The position numbers and the translations under genes are program-made. Below, piece after piece: positions 52,724 to 58,827 of a stretch of 64,000 nt of DNA. Positions within the stretch are counted from its first letter, which is position 1; every line of letters starts with the position of its first letter. Source of the stretch: an uncultured Acidimicrobiia bacterium (GTDB lineage: Bacteria; Acidobacteriota; Terriglobia; Versatilivoradales; Versatilivoraceae); contig CAWBAT010000004.1 of NCBI GenBank assembly GCA_963786955.1, positions 384,001-448,000 of the forward strand, read 5' to 3'. Under the pieces are notes generated by a model. It ran no database searches, had not been told where the DNA came from, and was given only the letters and a program-made list of their open reading frames with translations.

Positions 52724-55177
52724 TCACATCAAGTCGATGGGATCAATATCGATTTGCAGCCGGCTAAAATCGATTCCTTGCTTTTCACCTTGTGCCAGGC
52801 ATCGTTGCAGCAATTCTTTGAGCGTCTGGCGGGTTTTCGCTTTGATGAGGATCTGGTAGCGATGCTCGTTCTTCAGCCTTGCCAACGGAGAGAGAGCCGG
52901 CCCGAAAATACGAGTTTCGGTGTTTACGAGGCCGGATAAGACATCTGCGAAGCTATTAATCAGCCTGACCGCTCGATCCAGGTTGCGGTCGCGGGACAAA
53001 ATATTCGCCATGGCCGTAAAGGGTGGATAGTGCATCAACTTTCGGAACTTGAGTTCTTTTTCGAAAAACCCTTCATAGTCATGTTTCCGGACAAATTGCA
53101 GGCAGTAATGTTCCGGGAAGTAGGTTTGAATCAAGACCTGTCCCATGAGCTCACCACGGCCAGCCCGTCCTGACATCTGGGTAAATAACTGAAAGGTCCG
53201 CTCGGCGCTCCGAAAATCGGGTAACGAGAGCACACTGTCAGCCGAAAGGATTCCCACCAGGGTGACCTGATGAAAATCGTGTCCTTTCGAAATCATCTGC
53301 GTTCCGGTCAGAATATCAATCTCTCCAGTCTGCACCTGCCGCAGGATCTTCAGATGGGCATTCTTCTTCCGCGCGGTATCTCGATCCAAGCGCGCAATTC
53401 GAGCCTGTGGGAAAATCTTATCCAAGACTGCTTCAATCTTCTCTGTCCCCTCCCCCAGAAAATGAAGATGCTCACTGCCACAAGCCGGACAATTTCCCGG
53501 AACCGCTTGTTCGTAGGAACAATAGTGACACACCAGGCCATTCTTAGATTTATGATAAGTGAGGGTGATGCTGCAATTCCGGCAGCGAATGCTCTGTCCA
53601 CAATGCCGGCAGAGTAAGCTCGCTGAGTACCCTCTCCGGTTGAGGAGCACGAGAGTCTGCTCCTTTCGGGCAAGACGCACTTGGATCTGCTCTTTGAGAA
53701 CACTGGAGAGCGTTGGCTTCTTCCCTCCGATCTTGAACTCTTCTCTCATATCCACTAGGGTGACTTCTGGAAGGGGGCGGTCTTGAACCCGTGACGCTAG
53801 CCGGAGGTATTGATATTTCCCGTTCTTCGCATTGTAAAAAGTCTCAACGGAGGGAGTCGCGGACCCTAAGATGACCACCGCATTTTCCTGCTTTCCTCGC
53901 ACCAACGCTGTATCCCGCCCGTTATAACGTGGGCTTTCGTGTTGCTTAAAGGAAGGATCATGCTCTTCGTCCACGACAATGAGGCCAATGTTGTGGAGCG
54001 GAGCAAAAACGGCCGAGCGGGTTCCGATCACAACCTTGGCTTCTCCTCGACGAATTCTCCACCACTCATCAAAGCGCTCGCCATCAGACAATCCGCTGTG
54101 AAGAATTGCTGAGGCATTTTTCAAGCGCCCGCGAAACTCCTGGGCTACCCGGGGAGTAAGTCCGATTTCCGGCATTAATATCAGGCAAGTTTTCCCCATT
54201 GCCAGGGACTGCTCAATGAGCGTCAAGTAAATTTCGGTTTTTCCGCTTCCGGTCACGCCGTGGAGAAGCCAGGAGGAAAAAGAAGTGGCTTGCAGAGCCT
54301 TGCTTAGTTCCGTGATGGCAGCTTTTTGCTCGATGGTGTGTTCAGGCACAACGGAGAAAGAGGGCTGAGGCATCTCTCGATAGGGGTCACGCTGGAGGCG
54401 TTCTGAGGTGATTCGAATCAGACCCTTTTTCTCCAAGGTGTTGACGGTTGATCGAGAAACCTTCTGCTGAGCGAGTAACTCGGTAAGAGCGATCGGCTCT
54501 TTTCTTTTCTGAAGACACTCCAGAATTTCAAGTTGCCTGGCGGTGAGCTTCAAAGTCCCCGTTTTGGATAAATCCGAAAAAGCCAGAGATACTTGAAGCT
54601 GTGTTTTTTCTGAACAGCTGCTTGGGCTAAAAGAGTGGTCGATCCTCACCCATTGGTTTGAGACAAGTTTCGGCAACATTCGATCGGCCGAGGCAATGCC
54701 GGTTTCATTTTTGAGCTCGAGTGAAGTCAGCGATTTCTTTTGTGCAAGGATCCTGAGAACGCGTGTTTCTTGTTCATTGAGGCCGGGCAATGCCTCAGCC
54801 TTGGCCACCTCTTCTCCTTGACTGGTAATGACTGCGTGTTTGTGGCTTTTGAGGCTGCCCCCCGGCGGTAGACAAGCTTTAAGCACTTCCCCTAAGGAGG
54901 CAAAATAGTAATCCGCAATCCATTGGCTGAGTTTGAACAGGCTGGCTGGAATCACCGGAACCGGGTCGACGACCTTGAGAATGTCCTTGATGGCGACACT
55001 GCTCTGGATTTCTACGGGAAGCTGCGCGTGGGTTTTCACCACAAATCCCATCATCTTCCGGTTTTGAAAAGGGACGAGGACTCTTTGGGCGGGCTGGGCC
55101 GATTCAAAGATTTCTTGCTCACATCGGTAGTAAAAAGTCCGATGAAGTGGTAACGGCAGGGCGACTTCGAGGAACAT
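52724..55177 (-). CDS. priA: Primosomal protein N'
   Basis: GVTGSGKTE, DEEH, Cys-rich Zn region and GRAGR motifs. Confidence 0.97.
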   Translation of the reverse strand: MFLEVALPLPLHRTFYYRCEQEIFESAQPAQRVLVPFQNRKMMGFVVKTHAQLPVEIQSSVAIKDILKVVDPVPVIPASLFKLSQWIADYYFASLGEVLKACLPPGGSLKSHKHAVITSQGEEVAKAEALPGLNEQETRVLRILAQKKSLTSLELKNETGIASADRMLPKLVSNQWVRIDHSFSPSSCSEKTQLQVSLAFSDLSKTGTLKLTARQLEILECLQKRKEPIALTELLAQQKVSRSTVNTLEKKGLIRITSERLQRDPYREMPQPSFSVVPEHTIEQKAAITELSKALQATSFSSWLLHGVTGSGKTEIYLTLIEQSLAMGKTCLILMPEIGLTPRVAQEFRGRLKNASAILHSGLSDGERFDEWWRIRRGEAKVVIGTRSAVFAPLHNIGLIVVDEEHDPSFKQHESPRYNGRDTALVRGKQENAVVILGSATPSVETFYNAKNGKYQYLRLASRVQDRPLPEVTLVDMREEFKIGGKKPTLSSVLKEQIQVRLARKEQTLVLLNRRGYSASLLCRHCGQSIRCRNCSITLTYHKSKNGLVCHYCSYEQAVPGNCPACGSEHLHFLGEGTEKIEAVLDKIFPQARIARLDRDTARKKNAHLKILRQVQTGEIDILTGTQMISKGHDFHQVTLVGILSADSVLSLPDFRSAERTFQLFTQMSGRAGRGELMGQVLIQTYFPEHYCLQFVRKHDYEGFFEKELKFRKLMHYPPFTAMANILSRDRNLDRAVRLINSFADVLSGLVNTETRIFGPALSPLARLKNEHRYQILIKAKTRQTLKELLQRCLAQGEKQGIDFSRLQIDIDPIDLM

Positions 55178-55454
55178 GCCTTATGGACTTTTGAGTTTAG
55201 GAATGGCTGAGTAAGGGATCACAGCTTTGATATTCGCTTGGCAAACGGCTGCATGAACAATTCTACTGCATCAGAATTGCAGACCTGATTTCCCTACTGC
55301 GCAGTTATTGCCAAACTGTGTTCGTTGAGTTTCACGCGGTTGTGAATCTAATTTCATGCGCTTCATGATAACTTTCATGAGTTTTCATTATGGCCCTGTC
55401 AATAGGCTGGCTCAAGGGATTTCTGCTTGACCGTTGGTCGATGTGTCATTCAGC

Positions 55455-55605
55455 CTAAGGACTACTATTCGTAATTACGGTGAGCCGTCTTTGGATAGGC
55501 GCCGCGTGAGGTTGGAGCTTTGAGAAAGCCCCAAGCCTACAAAATTGTAGGCCGGGTCACCGACCCGGCGTAACGGTCACTGTATTTATGAAAAGCATTA
55601 CTTAG
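55455..55605. repeat. MITE-like element containing GTAG-type REP hairpins (copy B)
   Basis: Shares attcgtaatt, ggataggcgccgcg, gcctacaaa.ttgtaggccggg.caccgacccggcgt and the cttag end with 3975-4109. Confidence 0.75.
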
Positions 55606-55642
55606 TTTCGGGGTGGCGCACCCATTAGAAGGCCTTTGTCAA

Positions 55643-56180
55643 TAGAACAAACTACCCCTTGAGTGCGACGTAGACTTTTTTGCAAAGGCTCCCTTGCCAG
55701 ATTCCTTTCTCGATCTTCAGAGCTAGCGGCTCATCGAGGACCGTACGCTGTCTACCGGCGGCCTTAGCTGGGTCTACGGGCTAAATTCCTTAGCTTTCTC
55801 CAGCCATGATTCGAACTGGAGAAGGCGGAAGGATCCCGGCCGAGTTTTTGAACCACGCACCCAGGGTTTTCTTGCTTGAGGATCGGCTCGTATCGAGTCC
55901 GTCCATGCACCCATCAGGATCAAGGCTATCGAGGACCATTGGCCTCATTAGCCCCTGGCGCCGTGCGGCGCCCCAGAAAATCGTTGGTACCAGACCGTGT
56001 CCAATGGGCGTGACCGGGTCACAGAATCGGTGGTTCTCCAAGCCAACCGGCTTGGACCAGCGCCGGGCAGGCTCGCGGTCTGGGCGTGCTCGAAAACATC
56101 AGCCTATATCGGGACGGGGACTGTGTCCAATCAGACAGCTGGATTTACACCAGCGCCACCCAAGGCTCACAGCCCCCACC
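55643..56180 (-). ncRNA. Putative bridge RNA / seekRNA region of the IS1111-type element
   Basis: Stem-loop at 56116-56176 carries GGGTGGCGC and TGTCTG matching the two halves of the target; scaffold repeated downstream; transcript ends unknown. Confidence 0.8.
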
Positions 56181-56185
56181 CAGCT

Positions 56186-57205
56186 TTAGCTGCTGAACAA
56201 GCGGGTCGGTTCAAACCGCACCTGATCTCGCAGCACATAATAACAGGCCCGCGCCAGCTTGTGAGCCAGGGCCTTAATTGCCAGCGTCCGATTGACGGCG
56301 GCTGTTTTCCGTTCCACAAATCGTCGGGCTGACCCATACGACCGGGCCGCGTGGGTCGCTGCCTCCACAAAGGCCCAGGCCAGATACCGGTTGCCGTTAT
56401 GGCGGTTGTTCTCCCCTTTCTTCTTCTGGTTGCTCAACCGGGTGCTGGCGACACAGCGGCAGTAAGAGGCGTAATCACCGACTTGAGGGAATCGCCCGAT
56501 GTCGCCGGTCTCCAGCCAGATGGTCAGGGCGAGAATTGGTCCCACCCCATAGACACTTTGCAACAACTCAAAGGAGGCTTCCGGCTTGGCCTGGCTCTTG
56601 AGCTGTTTCTCAATGACCGCAATCTGTTTGTCCAGAGCCTGGATCACCAGCAGCGAACTCTCCACCGCCAGCCTCCGTTCCCGGTCGGGAAACAACTCCC
56701 GAACCTCGGCGACACTCAGCTGCCGAATCGGGGTGTCGGGACTGCGCCGTCCCTGGTGGCGACTCAACAGATTGTTGACGTGCAATAACTGACTGGTGCA
56801 TTGCCTCACCAGAAAACTGCGTTGTCGCAACAGATCTCTCAGTGGCCGCTGCCCAGCCGGGTAAATGTAGCCGGTTGGCAAAAGCTTCAGCCGCAGCATC
56901 TCCCCCAGCCAGCGCGCATCTGACTTGTCGTCACTGTACTTGAGCCCCTGGTACTGCTGCATCGCATTCGGGTTGGCCAGCTTCACCGAGTAGCCCGCTT
57001 CCTTCAGTCCATCCACCAACCAGTACCAGTTGTAGGTCGACTCCACGGCCAGCTCCACAATCTGCTCTCGATACGGCTCTAGTTGCTCTAGCACCACCAT
57101 CATCTCATTGGGCAACCGACACCGATGCACCACGATTCCTCCTTCGTCCAGCAGCACCAGATAACTGTTGTTGGCATGCAGATCGATTCCGCCATATAGT
57201 TTCAT
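56186..57205 (-). CDS. IS110-family transposase (bridge recombinase)
   Basis: GIDLH, VEST and SDDKSDA DEDD RuvC-like motifs; GVGPI and SYC...S motifs. Confidence 0.96.
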   Translation of the reverse strand: MKLYGGIDLHANNSYLVLLDEGGIVVHRCRLPNEMMVVLEQLEPYREQIVELAVESTYNWYWLVDGLKEAGYSVKLANPNAMQQYQGLKYSDDKSDARWLGEMLRLKLLPTGYIYPAGQRPLRDLLRQRSFLVRQCTSQLLHVNNLLSRHQGRRSPDTPIRQLSVAEVRELFPDRERRLAVESSLLVIQALDKQIAVIEKQLKSQAKPEASFELLQSVYGVGPILALTIWLETGDIGRFPQVGDYASYCRCVASTRLSNQKKKGENNRHNGNRYLAWAFVEAATHAARSYGSARRFVERKTAAVNRTLAIKALAHKLARACYYVLRDQVRFEPTRLFSS

Positions 57206-57242
57206 CAGAGGTCTCCTTTCGGGATTAAGTTCGGTACTTAAC

Positions 57243-57273
57243 CCTGAGTCTATCCCATTCGGATAGACTCAGG
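57243..57273. other. Perfect 13-bp hairpin in the IS 5' leader
   Basis: cctgagtctatcc-cattc-ggatagactcagg. Confidence 0.7.
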
Positions 57274-57294
57274 AGGCCTTCTAGATGATTATCA

Positions 57295-57399
57295 GACATG
57301 TGGTTTTTGCATGTCTGCGCCAGTCGACAATCGAAAGGCCTGGCCTCAGCGCATGCATTCAATTCGAAGACATGCACACAGCGCATATCTTCACCACCC
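57295..57399. repeat. REPIN-like inverted REP doublet (copy 1; left arm split by the IS, first 10 bp at 55611-55620)
   Basis: Close direct repeat at 59160-59268. Confidence 0.85.
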
Positions 57400-57472
57400 A
57401 GCGAAATCTATGGAGCAACATAATACAGGCCATTCGCTGATGCCGAAGTCTGTTGCCAACTGAACTAGCTGG

Positions 57473-58827
57473 TCAATCCTTGATGGCCTGGTAAGCCAAA
57501 TTCAATGTCTTTGAGGCCAGGTTCAGGCCTCCGGTTGGATGTAGCTGTCCCATAAAGATTGCAATCATGTCTTCTTTGGGGTCGATCACGAACGAAGTAT
57601 AGAAGAATCCCCCCCAATAATAGGCCCCGAGCGAGCCCAATTCGGTCAGATGTCTAGGCTCGCCGTTGACGCCAAAACCAAGCCCATAGCCCATGTCGTC
57701 GAGCTTTCCCTGGACGTGATTTTGCGAGACGAGTTCAACAGACTTCCGGCTCAGCAGGCGTACACCATTCAACTCACCGCCCTTCAGCAGCATCTGGCAA
57801 AACCGGTAATAATCTTCGGCTGTTGAGCACAGCCCCCCCCACCGGAAAAGTAAGTCCGGGGCCCATGGTAGGGATAATCGGAAGAATAGACAAACGCTCC
57901 TTCTTCAACGACCTGTTTCTCGGCAAATGGCTGGAGCCCCTTTGCAGGATAGTAGGTATAGGCGGTTGCCAGCCGTGTTAGTTTCTCTTCCGGCACAAAG
58001 AAACAGGTGTCCTTCATCCCCATTGGTTTAAAGATCCGTTCCCGGAAGAACTGGTCAAGCGTCATCCCTGAAATCACTTCGACCAGGTATCCCAACACAT
58101 CGTCCGAAAGACTGTATTCCCAGGCCTCACCAGGCTGAAAGAGGAGAGGGAGAGAAGCGAGCTTCCTTACCGCATCACCGATGCTCCCTTCCTGCGGGAA
58201 CAGGCCGTGACCAATACTGGCTTCCCGATATCCCTTACCCAGACGATCGTTCCAGTGGTAGGTGAGTCCGGAAGTATGCGTGAGCAGGTGGCGGATCGTG
58301 ATGGGGCGTCTGGCATCTGTCAGGAATCCCGGAGGGGAGGTCTTGTCCTGAGGAAAGGGGGGGTCCAGAACCTTCATATTCTTGAATTCCGGGATAAAGT
58401 TGGAGACGGGATCGTTCAACAGGAAACGTCCTTCCTCGTAGAGCATCATCACGGCCACACTGGTAATAGGCTTGGTCATGGAGCAGATCCGAAAGATCTG
58501 GTCCGTGTGCATGGGCGTCCTGGCCTCCCGGTTCGCCATGCCGAACGCTTTGAAATAGGCAACCTTGCCGTGGCGAGCAACAAGTGTGACGGCGCCAGCG
58601 ATGCGGCTGTCGTCAATGCTTTTCTGGACTACATTGTCGATTCGTTCAAGGCGCTCCGATGAAAGTTCTACATCTTCTGGAGAACCGGCCGATGCGACTG
58701 TTTCAGAATGAAGTGAGGTTGTTTTGGATACAGCCAACTTCTTGGCTGACGATTCGGGGCGGACTACGAGTCCCAGGGAGATTACTAACAGCAGGGAGAA
58801 CGATAATTTCCGAGCGAAATTGTTCAT
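57473..58827 (-). pseudogene. Serine hydrolase (beta-lactamase class C-like), split by a frameshift in a G8 run
   Basis: SMTK, LLTHTSG, WEYS and WGG motifs; G9 at 57833-57840 would restore SGGGGLCSTAEDY and fuse the two ORFs. Confidence 0.85.

Follow-up and report, generated by a model that had tools for sequence, protein, structure and literature searches.

The window analysed here, a stretch of 64,000 nucleotides, carries an intact IS1111-type element of the IS110 family whose 3' non-coding region very probably encodes a guide RNA of the seekRNA/bridge type, with the hairpin at 56176..56116 on the minus strand as its target-binding loop. The observations that bear on this directly are the matches between guide and flanking sequences, the conserved structure of the hairpin, the covariation of guides and flanks among relatives, the common target of the copies and the existence of that target in uninterrupted form. 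The features of the element, its flanks and the putative guide RNA are listed in Table 1.

Table 1. Location of the features of the element, its flanks and the putative guide RNA in the window
Feature	Position	Strand	Content or basis
Left flank, REP-like hairpin	57295..57321	-	5' arm GGCGCAGACATG (57321-57310), loop 57309-57301
Left flank, start of REP 3' arm	57300-57295	-	CATGTC; read from sequence
Core dinucleotide, left copy	57293..57294	-	TG (CA on the + strand); TG alone is common to both junctions
Left end, 87 nt	57206..57292	-	Terminal ATAATCATCTAG (57292-57281) kept across the family
Subterminal inverted repeat, left	57280-57275	-	AAGGCC; preceded by CTAG
Transposase gene, 339 aa	56186..57205	-	DEDD/RuvC-like N-terminal domain and Transposase_20 C-terminal domain
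Putative target-binding stem-loop (short seekRNA equivalent)	56116..56176	-	Fold, family consensus, covariance model
5' guide	56153..56161	-	GGGTGGCG plus C; flank match, family covariation
3' guide, 8 nt	56130..56137	-	TGTCTGAT; TGTC = left flank, TG = core, AT = first two left-end bases
Second stem-loop	55990..56083	-	GAGCC / TGCCCGGCG / CTGG..CCA / CCGATTC-TG / ..TTGGAC, closed by CCAGACCG:CGGTCTGG
Candidate right-donor guide	55976..55984	-	ACGATTTTC; discontinuous pairing with left-end top strand (G)ATAATCAT
Candidate left-donor guide	55907..55915	-	GATGGGTG plus C; mirrors right end AATGGG, core TG and first right-flank base
Right end	55621..55642	-	-35-like TTGACA (55642-55637), terminal CTAATGGG (55628-55621)
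Subterminal inverted repeat, right	55634-55629	-	GGCCTT; then CTAA
Core dinucleotide, right copy	55619..55620	-	TG (CA on the + strand); read from sequence
Right flank	55611..55618	-	CGCCACCC; remainder of REP 3' arm (CGCC) and ACCC tail

The element and its insertion site

The body of the IS1111-type element spans 57292..55621 on the minus strand (1,672 bp), and the dinucleotide TG flanks both junctions. The non-coding ends are unequal, with 87 nt upstream and 565 nt downstream of the transposase gene. The transposase yielded hits to the Pfam domains PF01548 (1.4e-13) and PF02371 (1.5e-13) and scored 180.9 bits (cut-off 140) against the NCBIfam model NF033542 ('IS110 family RNA-guided transposase'). 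The subterminal inverted repeats are about 9 bp long including a CTA extension and start 8-12 nt from the element ends; those of relatives occupy the same position and have mutually complementary sequences. By its domains, the protein length of 339 aa, the long 3' end, the subterminal repeats (7-17 bp and set back from the ends in the IS1111 group) and the fixed site, the element is assigned on sequence traits to the IS1111 group of the IS110 family. The traits dividing this group from the IS110 group are described in PMC11208160 and PMC11187229, the latter giving a transposase size of ~330-350 aa for IS1111 members.

An earlier note on this DNA had described the recombinase as complete and apparently intact, and this description held: the protein retains every position that is invariant in 18 aligned proteins (its own and those of 17 relatives), including the motifs GIDLH, VESTYNWYW and DD..DA and the serine of the C-terminal LSN, and the genome holds three copies of the element, which were 100% identical in the search output. 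It is reasonable to regard the whole element as complete and apparently intact; the recombinase is apparently active, and the identity of the three copies points to recent activity. The nearest proteins in the genome collections showed an identity of 63% over the full length and of 70% over residues 11-330, whereas in the plasmid collection the best matches with an annotation were full-length at 46-52% identity and labelled 'IS110 family transposase' or 'IS110-like element ISGsu4 family transposase'.

If joined in a circle, the ends of the element would read TTGACA-17 nt-GATAAT, and the TTGAC box is kept at the same distance from the end in relatives. A promoter-like CAGACA-18-GATAAT (consensus match only) is made by the left flank together with the left end at 57288-57317. 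The left end also holds a 9-bp inverted repeat, GAGTCTATC..GATAGACTC, at ~57269-57245 directly before the ribosome-binding site of the transposase gene; it appeared as a self-match in the element search of the genome as well and could form a hairpin in the 5' UTR. The right non-coding end is longer by ~110-200 nt in the window element and in locus L010 (565-599 nt) than in most relatives (~400-480 nt), the extra sequence of the window element lying at about 55660-55860.

On the + strand, the flanks read GGGTGGCG (55611-55618) and CA (55619-55620) on one side and, beyond the end of the element at 57292, CA (57293-57294) and GACATG (57295-57300) on the other; in the orientation of the element, the junctions are ...CATGTC/TG/element/TG/CGCCACCC... 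When the site is restored without the element, the other arm becomes CATGTCTGCGCC, which forms a perfect 12-bp palindrome with GGCGCAGACATG around a 9-nt loop and is followed by ACCC. As read from the restored site, the element in nature targets a REP-like palindrome in its 3' arm, CGCAGACATG-N9-CATGTC/TG/CGCC-ACCC. The expectation that other insertions share this target was borne out by all three copies in the genome (CGCAGACATG-N9-CATGTC/TG/.../TG/CGCCACCC), whose outer flanks and hairpin loops differ, and by the 82%-identical element L091 in a genome of the same genus. Insertion is site-specific and proceeds without a long target duplication, in that the three copies lie at the same position of the palindrome and the junctions share only TG.

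The uninterrupted 16-mer target had no occurrence in the element's own genome and 38 occurrences in nine of 40 related genomes, where a reversed control pattern yielded none; in all 20 instances displayed from relatives, the uninterrupted target was surrounded by the REP-like hairpin. In the own genome, ACCC is missing from 13 sites that have the left half, the core and CGCC, and another 18 sites combine TG-CGCCACCC with a different left side; none of all these is occupied. A need for both guides fits the vacancy of all these half-matching sites and would explain why one arm of the palindrome only is used. Searches with the flanks in the genomes G001, G002, G004 and G011 did not find an orthologous empty site; G002 has the neighbouring genes, and the hairpin is entirely missing from its matching intergenic region.

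The stretches adjoining the insertion (~55455-55610 and 57329-57405) are dispersed repeats, parts of which match many places in G002 and G011, so that the element sits in a cluster of small repeats between a priA-like and a serine-hydrolase-like gene. The latter, a beta-lactamase/serine-hydrolase-like gene at 57473-58827 on the minus strand, is present as two overlapping open reading frames (57784..58827 and 57473..57793), which may reflect a frameshift. The other two copies in the genome, L002 and L003 (G000:C3:299144-303135), lie head to head, 575 bp apart and with diverging transposase genes, an arrangement that could permit inversion or deletion between them. One of the two is adjoined by a REP variant, CATGGG-TG-CGCCACCC, which resembles the junction of right end and flank.

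The stem-loop behind the transposase gene and its relatives

The first stem-loop after the stop codon of the transposase gene contains, on the minus strand, GGGTGGCGC at 56161..56153 and TGTCTG at 56137..56132; the positions that the earlier note had given for these stretches were confirmed, as were the flanks that it had read. The 5' guide forms the complement of the right flank CGCCACCC together with the core G. The 3' guide TGTC-TG has the same sequence as the core and the four left-flank bases that precede it, a match that grows from 6 to 8 nt when the first two left-end bases of the element are counted. In the window, only four bases of the left guide lie outside the core, and of the two core bases just one falls within the 5' guide. 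Positions 56176-56168 pair with 56125-56116 to form the outer stem, CC (56165-56164) and GG (56128-56127) make up a 2-bp helix, and the inner hairpin is CTGG-TGTAAAT-CCAG (56153-56139). The proposed placement of the guides on opposite sides of an internal loop was recovered both in the single-sequence fold (-40.1 kcal/mol, z = -3.0, with none of 200 shuffles as stable) and in the family consensus.

The probability of such matches in a single sequence was estimated from 5,000 dinucleotide shuffles of the 541-nt non-coding region. An 8-nt complement of core and right flank was present in 418 of them, and 14 (~0.3%) had in addition a 6-nt match to left flank and core at most 45 nt downstream. This chance is small yet not negligible, and the guide match by itself is suggestive, not decisive; the case therefore draws its weight from the comparison with relatives.

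A scan of 55000-58000 against Rfam with E-values up to 1 yielded no matches, which means either that the library holds no model of this kind or that its model fails to recognise the RNA. Contigs from RNA libraries (three studies) cover the loop region (X1, X2, X3) at 90-98% likeness, and one search of RNA libraries returned four runs with small shares of the stretch, the contigs spanning parts of the element. Because these metatranscriptome contigs stem from relatives and could derive from DNA, they prove neither transcription of the window copy nor the ends of the RNA, and gaps in their cover carry no information. A promoter-like CTCACA-17-TATTAT (consensus match only) at 56237-56265 on the minus strand, inside the 3' end of the transposase gene and ~50 nt before the loop, could drive a guide RNA.

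Relatives were collected by a scan of one genome per species, from which 80 loci of 538 confirmed ones were kept (48-70% identity); both element ends were mapped in 40 of them via conserved terminal motifs. Left out of the alignment were L039 (ending at the stop codon), L021 (no motif), L014, the duplicates L013, L023, L024 and L073, and L068, L069 and L083, which looked truncated or mis-anchored. In nearly all relatives the stop codon is followed by the same layout, namely a variable outer stem, GAGCC, a variable stretch, YTGG-loop-CCA, a second variable stretch, TGATTGG and the other strand of the outer stem. The 71 aligned sequences share the outer stem, the 2-bp helix and the inner hairpin, and 10 of the 13 pairs of their consensus structure show compensatory changes. 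Paired cells amounted to 88.1%, compared with 70.3% in shuffles and 28-51% when the 3' partners were slid by 1-3 columns; changes on both sides of a pair were found in 200 cells against 67 in shuffles, and none of 500 shuffles reached 200. A covariance model built from the alignment matched 76 of the 80 loci, including L014 and L083, which were absent from the build, and gave no match in L021, L039, L068 and L069. In the element's own genome it matched only the three copies.

The variable stretches of this scaffold follow the DNA next to each element. Regarding the left side (54 loci), the mean contiguous match was 2.80 to the own flank and 0.96 to the flanks of others; regarding the right side (45 loci), the corresponding means were 5.38 and 3.16. 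Neither own-flank mean was attained in any of 10,000 permutations, which overstate independence, the loci being related to each other. The covariation of guides and flanks stands despite this kinship, because guides outside the common GGGG type still match their own flanks, with right-side matches of 9 in L060, L074 and L061, 8 in L076 and L085 and 10 in L027. The left contiguous match was 0 or 1 in 19 of the 54 loci, and many relatives have a mismatch beside the core on this side.

Within the conserved TGAT behind the second variable stretch, the first base is C where the core is CG (L043, L049, L051, L060, L074 and L078), and the fourth base changes with base 2 of the element's own left end (L072, L081, L085 and L088). 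Since both positions covary with the element's own junction, TG represents the core and AT looks like a handshake dinucleotide, as described for IS621 (PMC13626964). A reading of TGATT in the target loop as the complement of left-end AATCA was rejected, as L072, L081, L085 and L088 fit identity, not complementarity.

The only close relative found, L091 (G002; 82% nucleotide identity), occupies the same target with imperfect guides: its 5' guide GGTGTAGCG mismatches CGCCACCC at two positions, its 3' guide reads CAGGTC against ATGTC in the flank, and its protein match spans residues 11-330 only. As the guides of L091 mismatch its own target, strict matching is not universal or L091 is decaying. 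In two further loci (L082:3517-3711 and L064:1011-1212), the target-loop model gave two strong matches each, in tandem ~110 nt apart, which looks like a duplication of the target loop.

In all IS1111 seekRNAs tested in the published work, the match to the top strand lies 5' of the match to the bottom strand, and the IS110 type shows the opposite order (PMC11187229). The guides in the window, with the top-strand match first, have the IS1111 arrangement (PMC11187229). The identification of the stem-loop as a target-binding loop, first proposed from the window sequence, is thus upheld by compensatory structure, by guide-flank covariation and by the published IS1111 strand order.

Donor-matching segments and a second stem-loop

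The earlier note also held that the donor could be read from the locus. Donor-matching segments were indeed found, further downstream and not in the target loop itself. The full left-donor segment is GATGGGTGC (55915-55907). A motif of this type was present in 39 of the 40 mapped loci, its last base equalling the first right-flank base in all 39 (6 C, 33 A), and three of three elements with the right end AATGAG mirror it as GATGAG, so that the identification of this candidate segment is well supported by comparison. That of the right-donor segment is tentative; its pairing with the left end shows compensatory changes in L028 (two) and L082 (one) and none in L029 and L045. A mutual-information scan of the whole non-coding region against the junction positions, which was dominated by clade effects, recovered the left guide and no clean donor signal. 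CCCATT at 56008-56003 was also considered as a reader of the right end and was discarded, as it is not conserved in relatives.

Together, the donor-matching segments would make the RNA a full bridge-type RNA. They are located between hairpins, which agrees with the remark of Durrant et al. (PMC11208160) that the donor-binding nucleotides of many IS1111 elements sit in a multi-loop structure.

A second stem-loop, which has the architecture of a target loop and is conserved in the family, occupies the region from the target loop to the donor segments; parsing of this stem-loop succeeded in 35 of 38 relatives. Its right stretch matched the own flanks with a mean of 3.09 and those of others with 2.42 (6 of 10,000 permutations), its left stretch with 1.71 and 0.67 (0 of 10,000), a result that is inflated by the kinship of the loci. 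The target-loop model matched this stem-loop as a second copy in five relatives, and the second loop is a better fit to the flanks than the first in L016 and L085. For the window element, its matches to the flanks are limited to GGCG(C) and TC-TG. An assignment as a donor loop was rejected, as its stretches match neither element end and are variable, in contrast to the conserved ends. The second stem-loop may be the extra part of the 'long seekRNA' (148-172 nt) of the published account, and this module may already be described in the supplementary figures of the seekRNA or bridge RNA papers. It is conceivable, if doubtful, that the clade makes a three-part guide RNA composed of a target loop, a target-like paralogue of this loop and a donor part of several hairpins that has handshake bases.

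Mechanism, alternatives and known systems

By the preferred reading, the guide RNA would be transcribed with the transposase gene or right behind it and would be bound by the transposase. The 3' side UGUC-UG would pair with the bottom strand left of and across the crossover, the segments 55984-55976 and 55915-55907, which match the element's own left and right ends, would hold the donor, and the recombinase would exchange strands at the TG core between the target site and the excised circle, in which the two ends of the element are joined. RNA production, protein binding and strand exchange via a circle are proposed by analogy with ISEc11, ISPa11, ISKpn4 and IS621, and programmability of the recombinase by homology with the elements that have been tested.

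It is hardly credible that the guide matches are a by-product, with a REP fragment captured by the element or shared by descent and the hairpin having no guiding role. Such an origin can draw on a target that is a multi-copy repeat in this bacterial family and on the single-sequence chance of just ~0.3%; it is opposed by a scaffold that relatives from many phyla share (76 of 80), with loop stretches that change along with the own flanks, and a captured REP fragment would not occupy corresponding loop positions in elements whose targets are unrelated (L060, L074, L076 and L085). The same covariation of guides and flanks would be left without explanation if the REP hairpin were recognised by protein-DNA contacts alone and the stem-loop served the transposase mRNA as a 3'-UTR terminator, stabiliser or translational regulator. 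That role would suit the first structure after a stop codon, and a DNA palindrome is readable by protein; however, no T-run follows the stem of the target loop, a terminator scan made no call there, and in the IS1111 members tested transposition depends on a homologous RNA that co-purifies with the transposase (PMC11187229). This 3'-UTR role is accordingly regarded as very improbable.

Recognition could also be RNA-guided with the first hairpin providing half of the reader, the target being chosen jointly with the second module at 56083-55990. The shared architecture of the module, the better match of its stretches to own than to others' flanks, its better fit in L016 and L085 and the matches of the target-loop model to it in five relatives speak for such a division of labour. 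It is nevertheless unlikely for the window element, given the short matches of its second loop, the effect of kinship on the permutation result and the behaviour of ISEc11, in which transposition worked better with the 82-nt short seekRNA on its own than with the form of 154 nt (PMC11187229).

Regarding known systems, ISEc11 (IS1111 family; Siddiquee et al. 2024, PMC11187229) shares with the window element a transposase of 339 aa, a long non-coding region downstream of the gene, subterminal inverted repeats, ends that would form a promoter when joined, and an RNA hairpin of ~80 nt directly after the stop codon, whose two matches overlap at the insertion point. In ISEc11, an 82-nt RNA at this same position sufficed for transposition and could be reprogrammed (PMC11187229). 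The window element differs in its target, a REP-like palindrome of an environmental bacterium, and in its much longer non-coding region (565 nt), the likeness being judged by the published description. ISPa11, also of the IS1111 family, resembles the window element in inserting at a fixed point of a REP, that of Pseudomonas aeruginosa, and in having a seekRNA (PMC11187229), whereas host, REP and guide sequences differ, likewise as compared by description.

The bridge RNA of IS621 (IS110 group; Durrant et al. 2024, PMC11208160; structures 8WT6-8WT9) belongs to a DEDD recombinase, as does the putative RNA of the window element. Common to both are internal-loop guides that read both strands around a 2-bp core, separate segments for target and donor, the latter being candidates in the window, and handshake bases matching the partner DNA; IS621 likewise inserts in REPs. 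In contrast, the IS621 RNA lies upstream of the gene with the bottom-strand guide first, whereas the RNA in the window lies downstream and has the reversed order, and the donor part of IS621 is one simple loop, whereas the candidate donor segments of the window are spread among several hairpins. The similarity of the two proteins is remote (E = 2.3e-7 over residues 51-140).

The mechanism itself, of which the locus is a sound new example, was already described in 2024 and is unchanged by this finding. It represents a clean natural case of RNA-guided recombination, in that target, core, donor ends, guide RNA and recombinase are all readable, and it contributes an orthologue whose nearest database relatives are no more than 63-70% identical, together with a defined REP target. 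The data set of 40 end-mapped relatives shows which RNA bases follow which DNA bases. The sole point of wider interest here is the second target-like loop: if the three-part reading were true, the guide RNA would contain a module missing from the IS621 model, and this loop would read the target flanks again and might hold the flanks of the integrated copy at excision or proof-read the target.
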